Shown here: piece by piece, positions 1 to 12,415 of the stretch
How the letters are laid out: every line of letters starts with the position of its first letter
How positions within the stretch are numbered: the first letter of the stretch is position 1
DNA from: a virus
Lineage: Duplodnaviria > Heunggongvirae > Uroviricota > Caudoviricetes
Length of the DNA: 12,415 bases
Reading direction: 5' to 3' (one strand)
Virus record (IMG/VR): IMGVR_UViG_2541047931_000014
Location: 1 to 12,415 of that record
Made by a program: the position numbers and the translations under genes
The notes under the pieces: model-generated
Database searches by the model: none
What the model was told of the DNA's origin: nothing
The model's input: the letters and a program-made list of their open reading frames with translations, nothing else

Positions 1-177
1 GCGGAGGTAATACACCGTAAGAGCTGGAAAAACCGTGCAGAAGTGGAACTGGCCACACTCACGTGGGTGGACTGGTATAACAATCGACGATTGCTGGAAA
101 GGCTGGGCCATACTCCTCCGGCAGAAGCAGAAAAAGCTTATTATGCTTCCATCGGAAACGATGATCTGGCAGCCTGA
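1..177 (+). CDS. IS3-family transposase (OrfB-like), C-terminal fragment; 5' part lies outside the window
   Basis: Frame 1 reads ...LTWVDWYNNRRLLERLGHTPPAEAEKAYYASIGNDDLAA* with stop TGA at 175-177. The W-Y-N-x-R-R-L-x-x-x-L-G-x-x-P-P-x-E pattern is the conserved C-terminal tail of IS3-family DDE transposases (recalled family knowledge). The track ORF 35..370 is a different frame. Confidence 0.6.
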   Translation, partial: AEVIHRKSWKNRAEVELATLTWVDWYNNRRLLERLGHTPPAEAEKAYYASIGNDDLAA

Positions 178-280
178 GTTCACAGATAAAACACTCTCCA
201 GGAAACCCGGGGCGGTTCAATCCGTACGGGGACGGGATACCGTTTTAATTCACAACAGCGAACAGAGTAATTACAGGGGA
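1..280 (+). mobile_element. Right end of an IS3-family insertion sequence (partial); exact terminal inverted repeat not identified
   Basis: The transposase ORF ends at 177 and the next gene's RBS and start are at about 275-287, so the IS terminus must lie in about 180-280. I cannot place the inverted repeat without its left-end partner. Confidence 0.4.
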
Positions 281-284
281 AGGC

Positions 285-782
285 ATGACAAAGCTGACCA
301 TAAACAGAAAACCGAAGGGCATTTACGGCACGCCGCAGAAAACAGCACAGGCGGCGCAGCAGCAGAATAAAACCACATCGGCGCATAAAGTGATGCCAGA
401 TAACCAGAACACACAGCAGAAGCTCACAGGAGCAACACCGCGGCGGCGTATGACCAAACAGCAGCGTAAAAACCGCAGACGCGTTAACCGTCTTATTGAG
501 CTATGGCCTGAATTATTCAGCCAGGAATCACCTAAGCCGCTTAAGGTGGGGATATTTGACGACCTGATACAGGATATTGCCGCGAGAGGTATTTCACTCG
601 GACAGGGAACACTACGCGCAACGCTGGCGCGTTATGTGCAGACTCCGCGCTATTACCGCGCCCTGGTAGCTGGTGGCGCGCGTTACGACCTGAAAGGCCA
701 GCCGTGCGGCGAGGTAACACCACTACAACAGACGCACGCAGGAAAACTACTGGAGGAGATGAATGGAAATAGTAAGAAATGA
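285..782 (+). CDS. ProQ/FinO-family RNA-binding protein (FinO-like RNA chaperone) with a basic, Gln-rich N-terminal extension
   Basis: ATG at 285 preceded by AGGGGAAGG. The C-terminal half reads [14 protein letters not shown]...[37 protein letters not shown], matching the ProQ/FinO domain signature as I recall it from E. coli ProQ (PLKIGIF.DL ... Y ... G..R.DL.G.PCGE). The N-terminal ~75 aa are K/R/Q-rich and low complexity. Confidence 0.75.
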
Positions 783-1179
783 TCACGCACATGGTCGCCG
801 TGCAGGTGATCACATTGTGGATGAAATTGCGGAAAAACAAAGAGTTGACATTGTTGTCAGTGTCACAGTCGAGAGCGCGAAGCGCCAAAATAAGCGTATA
901 AATGATCATTCAGATGTACATGGTGTGATCACTCGTTTACGCCAGACTTTTGTAACTCGTGAAGAGATGATTGAAGCTATTGACCAGCATACAGCATGTA
1001 TCAGCGTCAGGGATATACCGGAGATCATTGCTAACTACTTCATGATCACCAGACGCCTTTACCGGAGAAAAGACAAGAGCACGGTTAACCGTCTCCTGAT
1101 GTCTGATATTCGCGAATACCTGCAAGAAAGGGGCTATGTGAATCCACCAGAACAGCACTACGGAAGAGTCGGAGGCTAA
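763..1179 (+). CDS. Hypothetical protein, 138 aa, translationally coupled to the upstream FinO-like gene
   Basis: ATG at 763 preceded by GGAGGAG (752-758); overlaps the 3' end of the FinO-like gene by 20 nt. No recognisable motif. Confidence 0.5.
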
Positions 1180-1419
1180 CTAAAACCCTGTACCGAAGAG
1201 CGGCGGCGCGATGGGGTGAAGTAATGCAGTTGGGGAACTGACAAGGAACGGTATTACATATCAATGCGACGACTGGAATGTTCCAGGAAGGCACAGAGGC
1301 CACCGAAGCAACCGGATAATTTAGAAGACCTGAAACGGTCGCTTAAACGCACTGAAAAAGAAATGGGGATAGATGGGATCGGGAAATCAGTATGGCGTAA
1401 CTACCAGAAGTAAGCACAG

Positions 1420-1445
1420 AGCCGGAGCAATCCGGCTTTTTTTTG
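1420..1445 (+). terminator. Rho-independent terminator
   Basis: AGCCGGA-GCAA-TCCGGCT hairpin (1420-1437) followed by an 8-T run (1438-1445). Confidence 0.65.
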
Positions 1446-1544
1446 GCTGAAATCAATCAATCTGTTTTTGTGATAGAAATATGTTTATCTACCACTTTTT
1501 CAGATCAATAATGTGCATAGTTTAGTCAGTAAGAGGAAATTGCT

Positions 1545-1751
1545 GTGAATTGTATTAACGACCTGAACACAGGCGATGTCAGAGGTGGTTCCGTTCATCT
1601 GGATGCACAGACCGTGATGCGCCTTAAGCAGTACAGAATCGACCATGTGAACAATCACCCTGATCAGCCATTACCAGGCGTGGCGCAGATTGTCAGACAT
1701 GCCGTAAACGCCTGGCTTAATCAGAATGGTTTTGCATCGGGGGGTGAGTAA
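1545..1751 (+). CDS. Small hypothetical protein (68 aa); possible small DNA-binding regulator (speculative)
   Basis: GTG start at 1545 with AAGAGGAAA about 8 nt upstream, lying 100 nt after the terminator in an AT-rich promoter-like stretch. The segment GSVHLDAQTVMRLKQYRID ... VAQIVRHAVNAWL loosely resembles a strand-helix-helix layout, but this is not a confident call. Confidence 0.4.
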   Translation: MNCINDLNTGDVRGGSVHLDAQTVMRLKQYRIDHVNNHPDQPLPGVAQIVRHAVNAWLNQNGFASGGE

Positions 1752-1847
1752 TGAATCGCTGGTACAGCATCAAAGCAGAGGGACGCCAATGTTATCTAAC
1801 TCAGGTTTTATGAATTCTGACTCCCGATTCAAAATAGGAGGTTACTA

Positions 1848-4379
1848 ATGCCAGTCGTACCAACAGTATCCGGACGTCAGGTTGAGAGCCGTGGAGTTCA
1901 GTCAGCAGGCTTACAGACGTTTTCTCAGCCAGGTATTAGTGATGCTTTTGTTCGTGCAGGAGCAGAAGCAATTGATATTCTGGGTCAGGCAAAACAGCGT
2001 GCCAATATTGCCTTGGTTCAGGAGGCATCCCTTAAACTCAGTCAGACAGGCAGTGATCTGCTGAATAATCCTGAAACAGGATTGCTTAACCTGAAAGGGA
2101 AAAATGCTATTGGAAAAGGCCATGAGTATACACAGCAGTTTGATGCTCAGATCGAACAACTGGCTATGTCGCTGCCGGATGAACAGGCTCGTAATGCTTT
2201 CATGCAGCAGGCGCAGCAGCAGCGTATTCAGTTCGCTACGCAGGCCGGGAGGTACGAGATAGGGCAAATAAATGCCTACGAAGAAGGCCAGTTTCAGGCT
2301 ACGCTGCTGAACAATGGTAAAAATGCCGCAGCATTGTATGGCGACAACGCAGCATACATATTGGCTAATACGCAAACTTTCCAGCAAATTGAGGAGTACG
2401 GCATTGCGCATGGCTGGAGCGACGAGCAGATTCGGGCCAGGAAAATCGAGTTTAAAGAAGCAACAGCAAAAGCAACTGCTCAAAATGCTATTGGAGCAAA
2501 CTATCTTCAGGTAAGACAGCAAAACGGCGAGTTAAGCGATACTGCTGCTGGAGCTCGCCGTGCTGTAGCAGATAGTGGATCTTCCGATCGTATCCGCGGT
2601 ATACGCAACAATAACCCCGGCAATCTTGAATACAGCAAAACTAATCCGTGGGTTGGGCAGACTGGTGATGATGGTCGCTTTGCCAAATTCGAAACCCCTG
2701 AACACGGTATTCGTGCATTAGGGCGGAACCTGATGTCGTATCAGCGGCAGGGTATTGATACCGTCAGTGAGATAATTAATCGCTGGGCACCGCCCACTGA
2801 TAAAAATGACACAATGTCGTATATCAAAGCAGTGTGCGAACAACTTGGCGTTTCTGCTGATGAGCCTCTCGATGCATCTAATCCGGATACCCTGAAGGCG
2901 CTTTGTGCAGCCATTATCCATCATGAAAACGGTAGCCAGCCATACAGTGATCAGCAGTTAACTGCTGGTGTTAGTGCCGCGCTGGGGCTTTCTCAGCTAC
3001 CGACAAAAAATAAACGTTATACCGGTGTAGCCTGGTTCGATGCTTTAAGTGAATCAGATCAGGCCAGCGTGTTGCGACAGACTGATGCACTAGCCAGACA
3101 ACAGCAGGCTGAATATAAAACGATGCTCGACAGCCGGGTTCGCGATGCGACGGCTGCGTATATGCGTGGCGTTGAATTTCCTAACCCACCTGGTGAGGAT
3201 GATTTTATTGCAGCTTATGGAGTCAGAGAAGGAAACCTGCGATATACCGAGTTTAAGAATACGCAGATCGCCGGACAGTATATAGGCTCTTTCCGCAACA
3301 TGCCGACAAGCAGCATTACAGCATATGTTGAGCAATTACGCCCGGATACTGGTGATACAGGGGAGGGGTATGCGTCTCGTGCGGAGTTATTCGACCGGGT
3401 ATCGGCGGCAGCCACGAAGGTAATAACCCAGAGGCAGAATAATCCGTTTAGTGCAGCGGTGGAAATCGGATCCTATAAGCCGATCACCAGCAACAACCCT
3501 GACGACATCACTGCTGAGGTGGCTAACCGTTTCTCGTCGCAGGAAAGCTTACGCGCGTTGGGAATTAATGCCCCAATCCTCAATAGTGAAGAGGCGGCTG
3601 CGCTGGCACAGCAGGTGCGCGGCACTCAGAACGTTGACCAGACAATTAAACTATTGCAGAGCATGGGGGAAAAGCTACCTGCGCCAGCAATACGGCAGGT
3701 GGCATCTGTAATTGCTCCGAACAGTGCAGCAACAGCCTATTCTGCGCTGCTGCTGGGCACGCCGGATAATCAGTACGATAACACCAGGCCGTCGATCCCA
3801 TATAGTCAGTTCATCGGGTATAAGCCGACGATGAACAAGTACGACGTTGCAAAGGTTATTCTTTCCGGTGACCAACTACTGAATCCGACGAAGGCTATGA
3901 AGAATGCGGGCATAACTCCGGTACAGTTGCCGAGCGAAGATAAAATGAAGCGCGCTTTCGACGAACAGGTTGGTAATGCATTTGCCCGTAACCCAGAGAC
4001 GCGCCAGATCAGTTATAGCCTTTTCAAAGCCGCTTACGCAGGAATCGCTTATCAGTCTGGTAATACGTCTATGACGAGCACAGATGCGGTTAACTCCGAT
4101 GTGGCGGAGAAAGCTGCGCAGTACGCAACAGGCGGTGTATACAAGAGATTTAATGGTGGTGATGTTGTAATGCCTTTCGGCATGGATGAATCCACTTTCA
4201 AAGATCGCTATACCACATCAGCGAAACAAGCACTGAAAGATGCCGGACTTAACGTAAATGCAGTGTCAAACTTCACACCAGTTAATATCGGCAATAACCG
4301 GTATCGGCTGGTAAATGGTAGCGGACGCTGGGCAACAGATCCCAGAACCAATGAAGCTATTGTCGTGAGGGTTGAATAA
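1848..4379 (+). CDS. Large hypothetical protein (843 aa); phage ejection/internal-virion-like, with a conserved-looking NNPGN region that may be a cell-wall-hydrolase-like domain
   Basis: ATG at 1848 with AGGAGG at 1836-1841; 2.5-kb uninterrupted frame; Ala/Gln/Gly-rich. RIRGIRNNNPGNLEY...GRFAKFETPEHGIRALGRNL...INRWAPP lies at about nt 2590-2950. No Walker A or helicase motifs. Confidence 0.85.
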   Translation: MPVVPTVSGRQVESRGVQSAGLQTFSQPGISDAFVRAGAEAIDILGQAKQRANIALVQEASLKLSQTGSDLLNNPETGLLNLKGKNAIGKGHEYTQQFDAQIEQLAMSLPDEQARNAFMQQAQQQRIQFATQAGRYEIGQINAYEEGQFQATLLNNGKNAAALYGDNAAYILANTQTFQQIEEYGIAHGWSDEQIRARKIEFKEATAKATAQNAIGANYLQVRQQNGELSDTAAGARRAVADSGSSDRIRGIRNNNPGNLEYSKTNPWVGQTGDDGRFAKFETPEHGIRALGRNLMSYQRQGIDTVSEIINRWAPPTDKNDTMSYIKAVCEQLGVSADEPLDASNPDTLKALCAAIIHHENGSQPYSDQQLTAGVSAALGLSQLPTKNKRYTGVAWFDALSESDQASVLRQTDALARQQQAEYKTMLDSRVRDATAAYMRGVEFPNPPGEDDFIAAYGVREGNLRYTEFKNTQIAGQYIGSFRNMPTSSITAYVEQLRPDTGDTGEGYASRAELFDRVSAAATKVITQRQNNPFSAAVEIGSYKPITSNNPDDITAEVANRFSSQESLRALGINAPILNSEEAAALAQQVRGTQNVDQTIKLLQSMGEKLPAPAIRQVASVIAPNSAATAYSALLLGTPDNQYDNTRPSIPYSQFIGYKPTMNKYDVAKVILSGDQLLNPTKAMKNAGITPVQLPSEDKMKRAFDEQVGNAFARNPETRQISYSLFKAAYAGIAYQSGNTSMTSTDAVNSDVAEKAAQYATGGVYKRFNGGDVVMPFGMDESTFKDRYTTSAKQALKDAGLNVNAVSNFTPVNIGNNRYRLVNGSGRWATDPRTNEAIVVRVE

Positions 4380-6439
4380 TGTCTGATGTTTTTTCTTTGG
4401 CTCCAGAAGGTCAGGCATGGATTGACGACAAAACAGTTGCCAACCCAGCAAGGCCAGAAGACTACGATCCGACTCCCTTCCAGGGTTCAGGTACTGCACT
4501 TTTTAGCGGCGTGGCGGAGGGGGCTCTCGGTCTCGCGCAGTCTGCCGTCGGATTCAGCAAGCGCCTGATTAGCGATCCGGCATTTACCGCAGACGTGGCA
4601 CCGACTGTTAACATTTTTCGGGAGATGTTCCCTGATGCTGACAAAACACTGAATGATACATACGACACGATCGGAAAACAGTTACAGGATGCCCGCAGCT
4701 ATGTGAAGCCTGATGCAGGCAGCCAGGGAATGGCGGCAGAGGTATTAAATGAGCTTGGTAAATTTGTTCCTGCAATCGGAACAACTATGTTTGGCGGTCC
4801 CCTCATCGGCGCTGCTACAACCTTCAGTTCTACGTATGAGCAATCCTATCAGGATTTTAAAGGGAAGGGAGTAGACGAGGCTACGGCGCGTAACCTGGCA
4901 ACGCAGCAGAGCCTTTTCAATGCTGTGGGTATGGCCTTACCCGCTGCCGTCGGCACCACACTGGCAACGCGCATTGCCTCAGGTGTGGCAATCAACACCG
5001 GATTCGGTGGACTGAACCGTTACTCAGTAGGCGCAACACTGGAGGAAAAAGGCTACACGGAGATGGCAAAACAGTACCGGGTATTTGACGGTCAGGCGAT
5101 GTTAGTCGATGCCGTTTTAGGCGGGGTCTTTGGTGGCGTTCATCACCTGACTACCCATAATAACCATGATGGTACAGAGTCGAACATTTCTGCAGAAGAA
5201 ATAAAATCAACTTTTGGTGAACATTATCAGCAATCTCCTGATGGTAACATTGAGTCAATGGTTCGTGATTTATCTGATTCAGGAGTAATAGAACTTATTA
5301 ATGAACCAGCAATAAAAAATAGTGATGGAGAAATACTTCTGAATAAAGGTCATGTGACAGTAGCTTCTGGAAAAGAACCAATAATAAGAATAAATATTAA
5401 TGGATTAAAAGACCATGAAGAACTGTTAGAAACCCTTCATCACGAGGCGCTTCATCTTGAGCAGCGCCATTACCCTGACTGGAAGGCCAGAAAGCTAGCT
5501 AATGCTGTACTTAAATCTGCAAACAAGCATTCTGACTATCCTGAATTTGCATATGGGATGTCACAATATTATGAATATAAGAAAAGGGGTGAGTACCCTG
5601 AAACATATCCTGAGTGGTTGTACGCTGAAGAAGTTGCCGCACATGCAGTAAATCCATCTCTAAAGACAAGCGTTTCATCATGGGAAAAAATTATTTCAGG
5701 TTTTAAAGCCTATATATTCAGATACAGTGGTATTCAGGTTGGAACCGTTACACCTGAGCAGTTACGGTTACTCGTAAGTATGCGTCTTCGCAATATGAAA
5801 CTGGAAGCCGCAGTAGAAAAAGTTTTTGGTATCCGGGCGAGGGAAAGAATAAAACCAAGCGATATTGATGCAGCCCACATTTTGAATGAGGGGCTTCATT
5901 ACGATATTGAATCGTCACCAGTGCTTCACACCAGCAATGAGAGCATCAACAGCCATGTTGACGCCATGGATGAAGCATACAGGCAACTTAATGATGGTCA
6001 GCCTGTAAATGTTGGGGGGATGGCGCGAGGGCTTGATGGTCCATTGCGATCAGATATATCTGATACTTACCAAGAGCAATACCATGAAATACAAAAGGTT
6101 TTTGAAGAAAATGGTGTCAGATATGAAACATCATCAGAGCCAATTAGTGAATCGCCTGTCCCTCGTGCTGAAAGTGCTTTCTCATCGGCTGGTGAACACA
6201 GAGGGGACGTCAGCGTTGATCCAGATACAGGGCAGGTTCTCTCATCCAACAGCTATGACCTTATGGCTGCCAGGGACATGGCTGTTGCCAATCCTGAGCT
6301 GACTATAGCTCACCCGGAAACCGGAAACCCGACAAAACTTTCTGATCTCCTGGCTGAGTTGGATGAACAGATTAAGACAGTCCAGAACGAATCGAAGGTT
6401 TATTCTGTAGCGGCAGCGTGCTTCTTGAGGAACCCATAA
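4379..6439 (+). CDS. Large hypothetical protein (686 aa); Gly-rich hydrophobic N-terminal half and a low-GC C-terminal segment containing an HEXXH (HEALH) motif
   Basis: ATG at 4379 overlaps the upstream stop (TAATG, 4377-4381). Gly/Ala-rich hydrophobic stretches (GTTMFGGPLIGAATTF, MALPAAVGTTLATRIASGVAINTGFGG, VDAVLGGVFGGV). HEALH is encoded at 5441-5455 within a segment of about 35% GC (about 5160-5760) versus roughly 45-57% in the flanking coding sequence. Confidence 0.85.
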   Translation: MSDVFSLAPEGQAWIDDKTVANPARPEDYDPTPFQGSGTALFSGVAEGALGLAQSAVGFSKRLISDPAFTADVAPTVNIFREMFPDADKTLNDTYDTIGKQLQDARSYVKPDAGSQGMAAEVLNELGKFVPAIGTTMFGGPLIGAATTFSSTYEQSYQDFKGKGVDEATARNLATQQSLFNAVGMALPAAVGTTLATRIASGVAINTGFGGLNRYSVGATLEEKGYTEMAKQYRVFDGQAMLVDAVLGGVFGGVHHLTTHNNHDGTESNISAEEIKSTFGEHYQQSPDGNIESMVRDLSDSGVIELINEPAIKNSDGEILLNKGHVTVASGKEPIIRININGLKDHEELLETLHHEALHLEQRHYPDWKARKLANAVLKSANKHSDYPEFAYGMSQYYEYKKRGEYPETYPEWLYAEEVAAHAVNPSLKTSVSSWEKIISGFKAYIFRYSGIQVGTVTPEQLRLLVSMRLRNMKLEAAVEKVFGIRARERIKPSDIDAAHILNEGLHYDIESSPVLHTSNESINSHVDAMDEAYRQLNDGQPVNVGGMARGLDGPLRSDISDTYQEQYHEIQKVFEENGVRYETSSEPISESPVPRAESAFSSAGEHRGDVSVDPDTGQVLSSNSYDLMAARDMAVANPELTIAHPETGNPTKLSDLLAELDEQIKTVQNESKVYSVAAACFLRNP

Positions 6440-9195
6440 TGAAACAGGCATGTGTTGAAGCTATTGCGCAGACACTTGGTCGCCAGCCAAAGGCTGATGA
6501 GCTGAAAAATATTGAAGATCGTATCAAAGAAGCTGTGCAGCATGTGCACAGAAAGAATGCAAAAGAAGGCAAAAGTGGTATTCCTGATGCTCAAACATAC
6601 ATGGATGCAGCAGAACTGGTACGCCAGCGTGTGGTTCATGATGTGTACAAGAAAAGACAGCGTGTTGCCCAGAATGCGATCGCCATCAGTAAAATTACTG
6701 ACACTCTCGATGCTAACATCCCGCCTGATCAGCAGACACCTGTTAATTTGCAGCAGTTTATTTTTGCTGGCCGACGATCGAGAGACAAAGCTGATATCTC
6801 CGTTACTTCTGCTGAAGAGCTTGCAATTGGGGCATATCAGGACTGGTCCCGTCAGCTCAGTGCTGAACTTCTAAAAGCAGGTGATGACGTCCGCAAATTC
6901 TTCGAGCAGAGCAGGGCGCTTGGAGAGCAGCGGTTTCGGAGTGTATTCGACAGGCAGGCGGCAAAGTCTGCACAACTCCAGATCCTGAAAGAAATTTATG
7001 GCGAAGATACCGGGAATCCCCTGGCGAAGAAAATTGCACAGATTTGGAAGGATGTAACAGGGCGTGTTCGTCATGAGATGAACGACAACGGCTTTGACAT
7101 AGGCCTGCGAGAAGACTGGCATACGCCATATGTGGATGATGCTGACCTTATTCGCAATGCCGGGCGCGAAGAATGGCTGGCATCGTTACCAGTGGCAGAG
7201 CAAGCTACAGTACGTCTTTCAGGTCGCCAGCCACCTATTGAGTTTGCCCGCCAGAAATGGGTTGATGACGCTTACAACACGCAGGATCGCAGCAATTACG
7301 TTAATCCTGACGGCAGCATTATGAATGACGTCGAGTACCGTCAGGCACTGGAAGCGATCTTTGAAACGAAGGCCACTGATGGGGCAAACAAAATTGAGCC
7401 CGGTACATTTATGGGAGACGGAGGAATAAAGAGCCGTGGTTCTCAGCACAGGGTGATGGCGTTCAAGGATGCGCAGTCACACTTCGCCTATATGGAGCGA
7501 TACACTCAGCAGCCGCTGGTGGGGGTGATGATGTCGCACCTGCAATCATCATCCAGGGATTTGGGCGTCGTTAAAGCCTTTGGTCCGGACGCCGAAAGAA
7601 ACTTTTCCCTGGTACTGGATCGCATCTATAAGCGCGCAGTAACAGGCGGGAAACGCAAAAAAGAAATGGAGGATGAGGCCAAATTAGTTGCCCGTATGTT
7701 CAACTCAATGGCTGGCCTAAATGGTGTCGCTTCATCGAGTGTGTTCTCTTCAGCAGTTGGTGGTCTGCGTAACCTGATGACCAGCGCCATGCTTGGCACC
7801 AGCGTACTGACAGCAACCAGCGACCAGGCAATTATGCGGGCAAATGCGCAGGCGCTGGGCTTTACCCGTGGTGGAATGCGGCTTTCCGTTAACACTATCA
7901 AAAACCTGTTTAGTGGAGATGCCAAAAAGGCGAATGCTGAACTCGGTCTGCTGGTGGATTCACATGCTGCTGTGGTTTCGAAAATGGGCGGGTTTGACTT
8001 GTCTCGCGGCATAACTGGCTGGTTCGCAGAGAAGACACTGAAGTGGTCCGGGCTGATCGCTATGGACCGCGCAAACAAAGCGTCGTTTGGTCTCCTGATG
8101 TACAAAAACATTGGCGAGCTGACCAGAAAATTTAAGACGCTGGACGATATAAAAGGAACCGATAAAACCATTCTGGCTAACAAGGGATGGAGCAATGAGG
8201 ACTGGGCCATCATGGCAGCGGCAGAACTCAGGCCGATGACTACTGCCGGGCATATGGGGATGACGCCAGACGCGATTTACGCTGTGCCCGATAACGTAAT
8301 CGCCGACATTATGGCAGACCGTATTGCCCGGATTCGTGCCGGGAGTGAAAAGGCACTGGCAGCCCTTGGAGATCTCCCTCCAGAACGCCTGAAACGGATG
8401 AAAGAAGCATTCGACGCAGAGGCTGAGCAGACCATCACGCGCATGATTCGTAATGCACGCGCTGAAGCAGCCCAGAAATTGCTGGGAATTACGCACGGTG
8501 AGATGACCAATGCTGTGACCACCGCTACGGGTATTGATACATATGCCCATGACGATGCTGGCGAGTTAATGAAGAGCTTCATGCTCTTCAAAACAACCCC
8601 ATTTGCTGGATTTCGGCAACTTGTTAACAGAACACGGGATTTGGACACCGTTCCGGCCATTAAATTTCTGGCCTCATATATCGGGGGAACAACTCTTGCT
8701 GGTATGTTTGCGATCCAGATGAACAGTTTGTTAAATGGTAATGATCCGCTGGATATGACAAAACCAACCACATGGGTTCAGGCTTTACTGAAAGGTGGTT
8801 CGTTCGGTATCTACGGTGATTTTATTTTCCAGGACCATACGCAATATGGCTCCAGCATCGGTGCCACTATGGGTGGCCCTGTGTTGAGCTTTGCAGAGCA
8901 GTTAACAAAATTACTGATTACTAACCCACAGAAGGCTCTACAGGGTGAAGAAACATCATTCGGTGCCGATGCACTGAAAACAGCCCGCATGATCACCCCA
9001 TTCGCAAACCTGTGGTATGCGAAAGCGATAACCAATCACCTGATATTGCAACAACTTCAGGAGATGGCAAACCCTGGTTACAATGATCGAGTAAGGGACC
9101 GCGCGCAACGGGAGTTCGACATAACGAGTTGGTGGGAACCGGGTGCTATTGCGCCACGTAGAGCACCGGATTTTGGAAAGGCGGTAGGGGAATGA
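6439..9195 (+). CDS. Large hypothetical protein (918 aa from the ATG at 6439; the track's 6418 start is an upstream in-frame GTG); ejection/internal-virion-like
   Basis: ATG at 6439 overlaps the upstream stop in the same TAATG arrangement (6437-6441), with GAGGAA 7 nt upstream. 2.75-kb frame. No nucleotide-binding motifs seen. Confidence 0.85.
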   Translation: MKQACVEAIAQTLGRQPKADELKNIEDRIKEAVQHVHRKNAKEGKSGIPDAQTYMDAAELVRQRVVHDVYKKRQRVAQNAIAISKITDTLDANIPPDQQTPVNLQQFIFAGRRSRDKADISVTSAEELAIGAYQDWSRQLSAELLKAGDDVRKFFEQSRALGEQRFRSVFDRQAAKSAQLQILKEIYGEDTGNPLAKKIAQIWKDVTGRVRHEMNDNGFDIGLREDWHTPYVDDADLIRNAGREEWLASLPVAEQATVRLSGRQPPIEFARQKWVDDAYNTQDRSNYVNPDGSIMNDVEYRQALEAIFETKATDGANKIEPGTFMGDGGIKSRGSQHRVMAFKDAQSHFAYMERYTQQPLVGVMMSHLQSSSRDLGVVKAFGPDAERNFSLVLDRIYKRAVTGGKRKKEMEDEAKLVARMFNSMAGLNGVASSSVFSSAVGGLRNLMTSAMLGTSVLTATSDQAIMRANAQALGFTRGGMRLSVNTIKNLFSGDAKKANAELGLLVDSHAAVVSKMGGFDLSRGITGWFAEKTLKWSGLIAMDRANKASFGLLMYKNIGELTRKFKTLDDIKGTDKTILANKGWSNEDWAIMAAAELRPMTTAGHMGMTPDAIYAVPDNVIADIMADRIARIRAGSEKALAALGDLPPERLKRMKEAFDAEAEQTITRMIRNARAEAAQKLLGITHGEMTNAVTTATGIDTYAHDDAGELMKSFMLFKTTPFAGFRQLVNRTRDLDTVPAIKFLASYIGGTTLAGMFAIQMNSLLNGNDPLDMTKPTTWVQALLKGGSFGIYGDFIFQDHTQYGSSIGATMGGPVLSFAEQLTKLLITNPQKALQGEETSFGADALKTARMITPFANLWYAKAITNHLILQQLQEMANPGYNDRVRDRAQREFDITSWWEPGAIAPRRAPDFGKAVGE

Positions 9196-9533
9196 AAAAG
9201 TTAAATACACCAACCAAAAGAGTTGGGGGGCTTCTGATTGTCATTGGAATTATATTTATACTTGCATCTATAATAGAAATATCAAGTAATGAGTTTGCTA
9301 TTTCTGATAGTCCATATTATCGATCGCTAAATGCATATGATATTATTTTTATGTATTTAGAGCGAATTACAGATACTTTCATCATGACTCTAACATTTCA
9401 AACATGGAGTAGCCGTTTCAGTATATTAATGTTAGTAGGGTTTTGTTTATTTATTGTTGGTGTTCTTATTTCATATTTTTACGATGCTGGAATTGGCAGG
9501 GTTGTTAAGTGGATAAGAACGGGTAATTGGTGA
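9192..9533 (+). CDS. Small integral membrane protein (113 aa, two predicted transmembrane helices), very low GC; candidate exclusion/immunity-type cargo
   Basis: ATG at 9192 overlaps the upstream stop (ATGA, 9192-9195). Hydrophobic stretches LLIVIGIIFILASII and FSILMLVGFCLFIVGVLISYF. GC is visibly much lower than in the upstream genes. Confidence 0.7.
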   Translation: MKKLNTPTKRVGGLLIVIGIIFILASIIEISSNEFAISDSPYYRSLNAYDIIFMYLERITDTFIMTLTFQTWSSRFSILMLVGFCLFIVGVLISYFYDAGIGRVVKWIRTGNW

Positions 9534-9864
9534 TTATAAGCAAGCTATTGGTTTCATTGTTTATATCGTTGTCGGAACTTTTTCAACTGACAGCAATCAT
9601 AGCCGGGCTTGAATCGTGGTGGGGATTGCACTGGATAATTGCAGCCCCATTGCTTTCATCGTGAGCTATATTCCATTTGTTGGAGCGATTGTTGGTATGG
9701 TTGGCGCTATGGATGTATGGTGTTGGGAGTGGTGGCAGGCTGGCCTTCTATTCTTTGGCGGATCATCTTTGCTATTGTCAGCGGTGGAATGTCATCATTT
9801 TTCGAATGGCTATCATTCAGAAAAAGAGCGTGACATGTCACAGGCCGCTTTCGCGGCCTTGTTT

Positions 9865-10026
9865 TTAACGAATGCCACCACCGCCCGGGCGGGAATCCGC
9901 AGAACGCCCACCGCAGCGGGAGCCGTCAGCGGCAGTATCGCTGTCGTGCTGACAACGACCGGCAAAGGCCTGAGTTGAAGCTACCAGAGACAACAAAACG
10001 AACAGTGCAGCAAATGCTTTTTTCAT
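9865..10026 (-). CDS. Candidate small secreted peptide (53 aa) with an N-terminal Sec-type signal peptide
   Basis: Minus-strand ATG at 10026-10024 encodes MKKAFAALFVLLSLVASTQAFA|GRCQHDSDTAADGSRCGGRSADSRPGGGGIR, with an AxA-type cleavage site. Candidate promoter TTGACG-N16-TATAGA lies just upstream on the minus strand (about 10040-10070). It is antisense to overlapping plus-strand ORFs, so assignment is uncertain. Confidence 0.35.
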   Translation of the reverse strand: MKKAFAALFVLLSLVASTQAFAGRCQHDSDTAADGSRCGGRSADSRPGGGGIR

Positions 10027-10096
10027 TGTGAAATTTCCATCTATAAGCCACCTCGATGTGGCGTCAATGAATGTAGCACTGACTTTTGTTTCGTCC

Positions 10097-10119
10097 ACAA
10101 AAAAGCCCGCGCTGCGGGC
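10097..10119 (-). terminator. Rho-independent terminator acting on the minus strand
   Basis: GC-rich hairpin GCCCGC-GCT-GCGGGC (10105-10119) preceded on the plus strand by an A-run (10097-10104), so the minus strand reads hairpin then TTTTTTGT. Confidence 0.5.
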
Positions 10120-10728
10120 TTACCAAAACTTGTACCACGGGGATTTATCCTTCAATGGACAATCCTTCCATCGTGTGGCCAGCCATTCATATTCTTTGTC
10201 TTTTCTTCAGTACCGGCTTTGCATCTTCTACACCCTGAAAGATGTCGTTTTATGGTGTATCTGATGATTTATTCCCTAACAATAGATATTCGAAAAATTA
10301 ATCAGTTAAAACAATTATTTGGATAATTTCAGGTAAAAACTATCTTAATCTTCTGGTGGATCTCAATGCGCCGTGACGGTATCGGGATTAAGGGCGTGGA
10401 TATTCGCGATATATGCCGCTACACCCCTCAACAGTAATAGATATGCGCTTTTCACTCTCTCCTTTCACTGCTGAGAACGGCAACAACGTGCCACAGGAAC
10501 GCGCTGTAATCGATTCTGACGCACTTAATTGCGTTGGGTAATGGTTTGCCAGCCTGTGGGGGTAACTCTGTTTTATGAGGCTTTGGCTATAGTGCAAAAA
10601 TGCACTTTGTCTTGCCTCTCAATTTGATGAGACTGGAACGACAACAGGACAGACCACCAGCAACAGTTACCGTATTCAGCCGTTCTGTGGCACCAGTGGA
10701 ACTATCCACCCCTGCTTTCAGCAATGTG

Positions 10729-10782
10729 TTTGCGGGTTATTTTGGGGCGTTTGCGGGTTATTTGGGATGTTTTGCGGGTTAT
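10729..10782. repeat. Iteron-like array: three perfect 12-bp direct repeats TTTGCGGGTTAT at 21-bp phasing
   Basis: Copies at 10729-10740, 10750-10761 and 10771-10782, separated by 9-bp spacers. Confidence 0.85.
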
Positions 10783-10857
10783 GCGATGCTTGAATAATGA
10801 ACAGTGCATTTTGCAACATATTGATACTAAAGAACAAAAAATAGTTAGCACGCTAAG

Positions 10858-10884
10858 ATAACCCGGTAACCCGCATAACCCGCA
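10858..10884. repeat. Three tandem inverted copies of the iteron core
   Basis: ATAACCCGG (10858-10866), TAACCCGCA (10867-10875) and ATAACCCGCA (10875-10884) are reverse complements of TGCGGGTTAT. They are separated from the direct array by a 75-bp AT-rich spacer. Confidence 0.75.
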
Positions 10885-11406
10885 CTGTTTTGTATATATA
10901 TACGAAAAATTGCATTCAGGAGGGGGGATCGAAATCCCTACAACCCATTGCTTATGGGACCGCCGCCTCGTCAAATTTTTACACCCGCGAAATAAAAAAT
11001 ACTTCACGCTGGTGGGCATGATGCTGATATGAGAGGCTTCCATAACGCCACCATTCGAAACTATGCAAATCTGCATAGAAAAGGGGATGCCTGATACAAT
11101 ACCCTCGCCCGATAAAATCACACCGATAAACTCATCTGCCACGAGTAGAAAGAGCGAACGAACCCGATACGCAGTAATGCTGGTCGGGTCCAGCTTTTTA
11201 AGGCGGCTGTAGATATCAGGCCATCCGTGATCATCCACCAGCGTAATTGCTGAACGCTTTAAAAAAACGTGTACATAAGGGTGTACATAATCAAAAACCG
11301 CATTAGAAAGAAACCAGCTACAATGCGGCATTGAAGCCAACACTCTACAAACAGATTCAACATCGAATAACTCGTAACGCCAATTCTTACTTTTCCGCCT
11401 TCACAA

Positions 11407-11438
11407 ATGCCGCCACTCAAACAGAGCGGCATTTTTCT
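11407..11438 (+). terminator. Rho-independent terminator with no plus-strand ORF feeding into it (orphan)
   Basis: ATGCCGC - 11-nt loop - GCGGCAT (11407-11431) followed by TTTTTCTT. All three plus-strand frames are closed immediately upstream. Confidence 0.5.
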
Positions 11439-11530
11439 TCCCCGCAACATTCAATTCTGTTTTGCGTGCCTGCTCCAGATTTTGCGATGTTTTTTTGCCC
11501 AGCACACTGAGAACGTGAGATACTCACAAC

Positions 11531-11546
11531 TGTATATAAATACAGT
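11531..11546 (+). promoter_or_regulatory. LexA operator (SOS box) in the dinD promoter
   Basis: CTGTATATAAATACAG matches the CTGT-N8-ACAG consensus and sits 45 nt upstream of the dinD start, overlapping a TATATAAAT -10-like element. Confidence 0.8.
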
Positions 11547-11590
11547 TACAGATTTACTTTCTTTGCAATTGATATCACATGGAGTGGGCA

Positions 11591-12415
11591 ATGAACGAAC
11601 ATCATCAACCTTTTGAAGAGATAAAACTGATTAATGCAAACGGAGCAGAACAATGGTCAGCAAGACAACTTGGGAAACTACTGGGTTATTCAGAGTATCG
11701 TCACTTTATACCTGTATTAACGCGCGCCAAAGAAGCCTGTGAGAACAGTGGTCACACAATTGATGACCATTTCGAGGAGATCCTCGATATGGTCAAAATT
11801 GGCTCAAATGCCAAAAGAGCATTAAAAGACATCGTACTCTCCCGCTATGCCTGTTACCTGGTAGTACAAAACGGCGCCCCTGCGAAACCGGTCATTGCGG
11901 CAGGGCAGACTTATTTTGCTATCCAGACCCGACGGCAGGAGCTTGCTGACGATGAAGCATTTAAGCAACTTCGTGAAGACGAAAAGCGTCTGTTTCTGAG
12001 AAATGAGTTGAAAGAACATAACAAACAATTGGTTGAGGCAGCACAGCAAGCTGGGGTAGCGACAGCTACTGATTTCGCCATATTTCAGAATCATGGTTAC
12101 CAGGGGCTGTATGGTGGATTAGATCAGAAAGCTATTCATCAGCGGAAGGGGCTGAAAAAGAATCAGAAGATCCTGGATCATATGGGTTCAACAGAACTGG
12201 CGGCTAATCTCTTTCGAGCTACCCAAACAGAAGAAAAACTCAAGCGGGATGGCGTGAATTCAAAACAGCAAGCAAACACCACACACTTTGACGTGGGTCG
12301 CAAGGTGAGGCAAACCATTCAGGAACTTGGCGGAACCATGCCTGAGGAGTTGCCGACCCCGCAGGTCAGCATCAAGCAGTTGGAAAACAGTGTAAAAATT
12401 ACAGAGAAGAAATAG
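11591..12415 (+). CDS. dinD: DNA-damage-inducible protein D (DinD), apparently intact at 274 aa
   Basis: ATG at 11591 with GGAGTGGG just upstream (the track's 11579 start is an upstream in-frame alternative). The sequence MNEHHQPFEEIKLINANGAEQWSARQLGKLLGYSEY... matches E. coli DinD as I recall it, and the LexA box directly upstream supports SOS regulation. Stop TAG at 12413-12415. Confidence 0.8.
   Translation: MNEHHQPFEEIKLINANGAEQWSARQLGKLLGYSEYRHFIPVLTRAKEACENSGHTIDDHFEEILDMVKIGSNAKRALKDIVLSRYACYLVVQNGAPAKPVIAAGQTYFAIQTRRQELADDEAFKQLREDEKRLFLRNELKEHNKQLVEAAQQAGVATATDFAIFQNHGYQGLYGGLDQKAIHQRKGLKKNQKILDHMGSTELAANLFRATQTEEKLKRDGVNSKQQANTTHFDVGRKVRQTIQELGGTMPEELPTPQVSIKQLENSVKITEKK

Follow-up and report, generated by a model that had tools for sequence, protein, structure and literature searches.

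An array of short repeats near one end of a 12,415-nucleotide stretch of DNA (IMG/VR record IMGVR_UViG_2541047931_000014, positions 1 to 12,415; hereafter the window) is most likely one half, the distal one, of a two-part iteron-type replication origin, lying ~11 kb from the gene for its probable initiator. The window is Escherichia coli chromosome. A ~20-kb island of the phage-inducible chromosomal island (PICI) type is situated there between yicC and dinD, and the two thirds of it on the dinD side fall in the window. Sequence comparison makes us fairly confident that the array is an origin-type iteron unit of a PICI, to which the Rep protein would bind; to any specific role of the unit we attach less confidence. 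The initiator-helicase encoded by the island itself, a DUF927 protein, probably recognises the 9-bp core of the repeats, TGCGGGTTA. A reading of the window made from its sequence only had suggested either an iteron-type origin or a cluster of recombinase arm sites. The first of these is the one upheld, because in related genomes the 9-mer clusters again immediately after rep, because it co-varies with the C-terminus of Rep, and because its arrangement fits the published grammar of the origins of Staphylococcus aureus pathogenicity islands (SaPIs) and PICIs.

Anatomy of the array

The unit consists of the first four elements listed here; the fifth lies upstream.

10729..10782, + strand: three phased iterons TTTGCGGGTTAT, starting at 10729, 10750 and 10771, with exact 21-bp start-to-start spacing
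10783..10857: AT-rich spacer of 75 bp, 33% GC, a candidate melting region
10859..10884, - strand: three abutting inverted iterons, TAACCCGG (degenerate), TAACCCGCA and TAACCCGCA, two of them perfect
10885..10912: CTGTTTTGTATATATATACGAAAAATTG element including the 12-bp palindrome GTATATATATAC, a candidate unwinding or loading element
10591..10606: palindrome AGTGCAAAAATGCACT, not kept in relatives

The three perfect repeats at exact 21-bp spacing that the sequence-only reading described are present as stated; the 9-bp core of TTTGCGGGTTAT begins at 10731, 10752 and 10773, so that successive copies are two helical turns apart. Its 75-bp AT-rich spacer also stands, with a GC content of 33% against 47.6% for the whole window and a lowest 40-nt value of 27.5% at 10800-10859; across relatives the sequence of the spacer is poorly conserved, its length and A/T richness being kept. 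Of the three tandem inverted copies, only two are perfect (10867-10875 and 10876-10884): the third, at 10859-10866, is degenerate, matching at seven of eight positions with an 8-bp offset, and nearly all relatives have TAACCCGC in its place. In one related island (L024, 16112-16153) the abutting block has grown to six TAACCCGC copies; the 8-bp unit appears to have been duplicated in tandem, and copy number is accordingly plastic in this half of the unit. The occurrence of two or more opposed iterons on each side of an AT-rich region, by which SaPI and PICI origins are recognised, is seen here as three copies on the + strand facing two perfect and one degenerate on the - strand.

Directly past the abutting triple lies TTTTGTATATATATACGAAAAATTG (10885-10912; the columns invariant in a cross-class alignment), which is conserved in all six of the iteron classes described below, whereas the iterons in the same alignment differ by class; the TTTTGTATATATATAC element occurs family-wide in this kind of unit. 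It may be a DNA-unwinding or loading site, which would act independently of iteron specificity. Ending the array at 10890, as originally proposed, cuts through this element, which belongs to the unit. When the columns of ten units of the TAACCCGCA class are compared, the iterons are 97% identical (85% of columns invariant) and the TATATA element also 97%, as against 80% (31% invariant) for the others. Such high conservation of iterons and TATATA element relative to linkers and spacer is the pattern expected for protein-binding sites accompanied by a specificity-independent element.

A given 9-mer is expected by chance 0.095 times in the window, counting both strands; five exact copies are found inside 154 bp of the array, and no further exact copy elsewhere in the window. 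A scan of ~450 kb of related loci for any 8-mer occurring three times at ~21-bp phase returned almost exclusively origin units, with two other matches: three copies phased at 21 bp are characteristic of the origins of this family.

The two TGCA palindromes said to flank the array both exist, though neither is conserved in relatives, and the second, at 10803-10817, is imperfect and lies inside the spacer rather than beside the repeats. The first, AGTGCAAAAATGCACT, probably lies outside the origin unit, because homology to related units begins only at ~10715.

A period of 21 bp is also one of seven codons, and two open reading frames (ORFs) cover the array, one of 65 residues with an ATG start (10600-10797), in which the repeats read in frame as FAGYFGA / FAGYLGC / FAGYAML, and one of 213 residues on the minus strand. 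That the phased repeats owe their existence to encoding a repeated peptide is nevertheless hardly conceivable: Pfam gave no match, the homologous region of island L004 is full of stops in all six frames, the same grammar is seen with other iterons and in both orientations, and the ORF entered in RefSeq, which only some genomes have annotated, continues past the att core into DNA of the chromosome. This RefSeq entry, WP_170991934.1, a 251-residue 'hypothetical protein' (window 10702-11343, minus strand; L001 14403-15158) that extends over the array, the cos region and the att core, has very likely been called in error.

A twin cluster beside the gene of a SaPI Rep-like helicase

It was noted in the sequence-only reading that no initiator gene is visible in the window. 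This is true, but the probable partner can be identified just outside it, in related genomes: extending the search beyond the window for a Rep or integrase gene, as had been advised, revealed both a DUF927 Rep and a tyrosine integrase in the related islands. The relatives of the window's island used for this purpose are those of strains APEC E18055 (L001 and L002) and UTAK-6 (L003). In L002 the 9-mer is present in exactly two clusters, the array itself and a second, with six perfect copies, after the DUF927 gene. In L001 this rep-proximal cluster occupies 3544-3668, beginning 24 bp past the DUF927 stop codon, with rep lying just beyond the part of the island represented in the window. It comprises two abutting copies, an AT-rich spacer and four opposite copies spaced 11, 21 and 21 bp; the distal unit, the array, mirrors it, with its three 21-bp-phased copies, spacer and three abutting copies. 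The conserved AT palindrome element of the distal unit is absent from the proximal one. The array of L001 is ~10.8 kb from the rep stop codon, and ssb, proQ, perC and cargo genes lie in between.

DUF927 is the sole domain that Pfam recognises in Rep (WP_032273012). Two PDB entries are matched by a profile of the Rep family, namely 8tch (E 2e-16), entitled 'Pathogenicity island protein', and 5dgk (E 4e-5), which is the SCCmec helicase Cch, and the NCBIfam model for SCCmec Cch1 matches Rep at E 1e-9, under that model's curated cut-off; on these matches the predicted initiator is a helicase of the SaPI-Rep/Cch kind. SaPI Reps are self-loading helicase-initiators whose C-terminal winged helix binds 6-12 iterons, and these iterons lie directly 3' of rep, in opposed directions, flanking an AT-rich region (PMC9371898). 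The same origin organisation has been reported for E. coli PICIs, and EcCICFT073 has a pri-rep-ori segment that is a proven functional replicon (PMC6092414).

If the array works as SaPI origins do, oligomers of Rep would occupy the iterons on either side of the spacer, open the AT-rich DNA between them and self-load as helicases; iteron specificity would reside in the last ~50 residues of Rep. The partner of the array would be the unit of two abutting and four phased iterons directly 3' of the rep stop codon, the cargo splitting the two halves. The array might fire as an origin, or might only assist the rep-proximal unit.

The exact 9-mers are confined to the two origin clusters of the island; the possibility that the repeats belong to an insertion sequence (IS) terminus or to a dispersed repeat, which would have undone the sequence-only reading, was rejected. 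Of 5426 E. coli genomes, 300 contain the 201-bp unit, at a median of one per genome and never on plasmids. Nor did phages or plasmids give a relevant match: megablast of 10300-11400 against their sequences returned irrelevant short matches only.

Iteron class follows the C-terminus of Rep

The comparison set consisted of 26 related islands, 14 from E. coli and 12 from other Enterobacterales chosen as Rep relatives; 24 of the 26 encode a DUF927 Rep. The same grammar appears after rep in every DUF927-Rep island, including all 12 from other Enterobacterales. The iterons fall into six classes, TAACCCGCA, TAACCCAC, TTGTCCCA, GTTGGTTCA, CGTGGTTCA and YCGGTTCA, and the 9-nt core, for which a new DNA-binding specificity had been suggested, does not stand alone: the Rep family is widespread and has at least six such classes. 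Over the C-terminal 42 residues of Rep, identity is 82% among members of one iteron class and 41% across classes; the corresponding figures for the helicase core are 82% and 77%. The clearest case is the pair L001 and L005, a natural domain swap in which the core is 94% identical, the C-terminus 29%, and the iteron differs. Iteron class tracks the last ~50 residues of Rep, not the integrase or the att site. As a control, the same k-mer method finds TGTTCACC downstream of a protein of L028 that is 49% identical to the alpha protein of P4; the P4 record gives TGTTCACC as its type-1 iteron.

Sites at the end of the island

The array unit lies ~470 bp inside the right end of the island, in the neighbourhood of three other features.

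10919..11000, + strand: phiP27-like cos region, 86% identity over 83 nt to a region annotated cos-site in phiP27, E 1e-13
11269-11277 and 11281-11289, + strand: two GTGTACATA repeats, candidate integrase arm-type sites
11352..11370, + strand: att core, CAGATTCAACATCGAATAA, which duplicates the last ~19 nt of yicC (3' end) and marks where the island ends on the right

The island is integrated into the 3' end of yicC. Its right boundary was placed by aligning the empty site and the left junction; strains with an empty site align from 11352 onward, and the comparison with an island-free strain that had been recommended thus puts the array within an att-bounded island. Fillol-Salom et al. 2018 (PMC6092414) had already included, in their Table S1, a yicC-dinD PICI with att core GAGCAGATTCAA.

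Closeness to one end of the island, together with short direct and inverted repeats in helical phase, is what might be expected of arm-type sites for the tyrosine integrase or an excision factor at attR, the second option of the sequence-only reading. We find it scarcely tenable. The array is 470-640 bp from the core, on one side only, being absent from the arm on the int side, and the 9-mer recurs right after rep, ~11 kb from the dinD-side att end. Moreover, the integrases of L001 and L006 are 98% identical and use the same att site, yet the iterons of these islands are TAACCCGCA and GTTGGTTCA respectively; conversely, L004, L007, L025 and L027 have other integrases and att sites (the integrases of L004 and L007 are ~26% identical to that of L001), and all four carry TAACCCGCA. 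The array being uncoupled from integrase identity, the arm-site reading is refuted, and GTGTACATA fits that role better: it occurs three times more beside int at the opposite island end (L002 22554-22605), its distance from the att core is 60-100 bp at either end, and the ~90-bp arm holding it is common to other islands that use the same att site. On these grounds the GTGTACATA repeats are likely to be the arm-type sites of the integrase, and are better candidates for it than the array.

The phiP27-like cos region starts only ~35 bp downstream of the unit, which raises the question of whether the repeats could be binding sites for the small terminase subunit TerS, a cosB-like part of the adjacent cos site. 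This appears very improbable. The likeness to phiP27 is with the segment next to the array (10919-11000), not with the repeats; homology begins only at 10919, and phiP27 has no such repeats upstream of its cos. The same 9-mers stand beside rep with no cos nearby, where they co-vary with the Rep C-terminus, and the distal unit of L006 has no cos block. In phiP27 the cos site is located between the HNH and terS genes, and the counterpart of its annotated 10-nt site is CGCCGCCTC at ~10961-10969, with one deletion and one substitution. A pattern search for lambda cosN at the cos-like site found nothing, the phiP27 match having come from blastn. The cos block is common to L005, L008 and L023, and the island is probably packaged by a terminase of the phiP27/HK97 type.

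Layout of the two units

The two units are contiguous, within ~300 bp, in 14 of the 24 DUF927-Rep islands (L007, L009-L019, L024 and L026). They are apart in the window's island (10.8 kb), in L004 and L029 (8 kb), in L025 and L027 (7.5-8 kb), in L006 (9 kb) and in L008 (2.2 kb), and L005 has two adjacent units plus a third, distal one. The position of a distal unit is always the far end of the island. In nine of the 11 sampled islands that have one, its iterons match the proximal iterons of the resident Rep, and this holds over the TAACCCGCA, GTTGGTTCA and TTGTCCCA classes. In L005 and L008 the DNA flanking the distal unit shares 84-90% identity with the window, but in place of the window's unit there is one that matches the class of their own Rep; a swap of this kind inside conserved flanks argues for selection for matching, not mere linkage.

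Several observations weigh against our interpretation of the array as an origin half. The published rule that the origin lies immediately 3' of rep describes the twin cluster (L001 3544-3668) and not the array. The winged-helix fold was not confirmed in Rep: a search of PDB sequences with its C-terminus returned nothing significant, and the AlphaFold2 model, from an alignment of 29 sequences, was too poor for a fold search (predicted local distance difference test score 49, predicted template modelling score 0.27). In the window's own strain an IS3-family insertion interrupts ssb at 219, and rep and the proximal unit are known from related genomes. Finally, the two remaining islands with a distal unit, L023 and L028, are mismatched: each has an intact or nearly intact TAACCCGCA unit together with the cos block, but L023 encodes a primase-family Rep with GGTAGACA iterons and L028 a P4-alpha-like Rep with TGTTCACC iterons. 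The mismatch implies that the unit can persist without its Rep and travel with the cos-bearing end module, and the distal unit may be auxiliary or dispensable.

L028 and L023 are among the PICIs and capsid-forming PICIs. The modules concerned lie at 3629-5661 (replication, other family) and 14008-14154 (orphan TAACCCGCA unit, far end) in L028, and at 9189-11200 and 16008-16154 in L023. Orphan units of this kind provide evidence for modular exchange of replication and packaging modules.

Taken to its extreme, such exchange would make the unit a non-functional passenger of the cos-bearing end module in PICI recombination, with no role in this island. The physical linkage to the phiP27-like cos block is consistent with this, as are the lack of a matching Rep in L023 and L028 and the possibility that Rep is absent from the window's strain. 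We nevertheless regard it as unlikely, since nine of 11 islands are matched over three classes, including the exchange of units within conserved flanks, since iteron conservation, at 97%, exceeds the 80% of neighbouring columns, and since the distal unit of L006 is matched and no cos block adjoins it.

Another alternative, conceivable though doubtful, is that the unit is an auxiliary Rep-binding locus and not a firing origin, either a partner in cis like crr of P4 or a titration and handcuffing locus like incA of plasmid P1, an extra iteron cluster which limits copy number by titration or handcuffing. The P4 record shows two clusters of one iteron, and the array's island likewise has one after rep and the other kilobases off, near att. 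The orphan units of L023 and L028 coexist with complete origins of other types, so that the unit is apparently inessential for replication there. On the other hand, the unit alone has the full origin grammar, with opposed iterons, an AT-rich centre and the only AT palindrome that is conserved family-wide, which the rep-proximal unit lacks; and in most relatives the two units are contiguous, resembling a single origin.

Comparison with known systems

An origin half remains the interpretation that best places the array among known systems. [quoted passage not shown] It differs in that the published origins are immediately 3' of rep, whereas the array is ~10.8 kb off, beside cos, and has a twin on the rep side; in that published iterons are of 5-6 bp and those of the array of 9 bp; and in that the grammar of phased triple, abutting triple and TTTTGTATATATATAC is not described in the literature searched.

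With P4 ori and crr it shares the presence of two separated clusters of one initiator-binding iteron, one of them beside the initiator gene, and the use of a different motif, near the core, for the integrase arm repeats. In the P4 record crr is right after alpha, beside attP, and ori is 4.7 kb away. BLASTP detects no likeness between the DUF927 Rep and P4 alpha (best E 0.12), the units are built differently, crr of P4 consisting of two 120-bp direct repeats, and the rep-proximal cluster of P4 is the auxiliary one, crr.

Iteron plasmids, among them P1 (incC and incA), F and R6K, resemble the array in having helically phased initiator-binding repeats inside and outside the minimal origin. Their initiators are winged-helix dimers of the RepA type in place of a hexameric helicase-initiator, and the element that carries the array is integrative, not a plasmid.

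The element is of a known kind; but the literature searched has no description of two units set apart in this way, of a conserved TATATA element or of a code relating Rep C-terminus to iteron, and these appear to be new.

We tentatively put forward a more specific scheme, as a possibility only: PICIs of this Rep family would have a splittable two-unit origin whose mirrored Rep-binding units lie about half a circle apart, bracket the accessory and late genes, and act together by way of Rep in the manner of P4 ori and crr; the unit bearing the conserved unwinding element, being beside cos, would couple initiation to packaging; and the slot between the units would be a permissive place in which cargo, for example defence genes, accumulates. 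Once the island is excised as a circle, the two distances between units would be ~10.8 and ~9 kb for L001/L002, 9 and 11 kb for L006, and 8 and 7 kb for L004. The near-opposite placement does not hold in L005 or L008 and may be a coincidence.

These results give a function and a likely protein partner to a 200-bp element, unannotated or mis-annotated, that is carried by ~300 of 5426 complete E. coli genomes. The grammar of 21-bp phased triple, abutting triple and TTTTGTATATATATAC allows origins to be sought across a large family of replicons of PICIs and capsid-forming PICIs, and the table of six classes of Rep C-terminus and iteron amounts to a natural code that could guide the engineering of specificity. 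The split layout and the orphan units raise the questions of whether satellites use two cooperating origin halves and of how replication and packaging modules recombine. The variable genes between the halves may interest those searching for defence systems.

The host island and its other features

The island has the attributes of a PICI: an integrase, an alpA-type regulator, a rep-ori module, a cos-like block and a specific att site already catalogued; close relatives of its Rep are located in capsid-forming PICIs. According to the annotation of L001-L003, the island carries a tyrosine integrase gene beside yicC, genes for an AlpA-type helix-turn-helix protein and for Rha/AntA/BRO, Icd-like and DUF4222 proteins, the gene of the 708-residue DUF927 protein, ssb, proQ/finO, perC and variable cargo, after which the array sits in ~1 kb of non-coding DNA.

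Window positions 1-219 are the end of the IS3-family element (transposase C-terminal end and terminal sequence) that interrupts the island's ssb. The IS/ssb junction of the window was absent from the 5426 E. coli genomes, no complete genome in the collection sharing it.

Between the origin halves the window has three large co-directional ORFs, at 1848-4379 (843 residues), 4379-6439 (686 residues) and 6418-9195 (925 residues), and smaller ones in the cargo slot at 9192-9533, 9616-9978 and 10028-10264; searches of the cargo ORFs with Pfam and PADLOC gave no match. UTAK-6 has other hypothetical genes in this slot, between identical units, and the slot is accordingly variable: it looks like a hotspot for accessory genes, possibly for defence genes.

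An Rfam scan of 10000-11600 gave a single sub-threshold CRISPR-DR match (E 0.27), which we took as chance, and a scan for promoters and terminators showed no enrichment over shuffled sequences. Upstream of the array, a 59-bp stretch (10489-10547) is 83-85% identical to the matching position upstream of the L005 and L008 distal units. On the other side, ~70 nt of the minus strand at 11130-11200 are 83% identical to part of rlfB (rapB) of P1 and P7, a replication-linked gene, and probably represent a fragment of that gene or a similar one; L005 and L008 have likewise kept 66 bp at 11177-11242.

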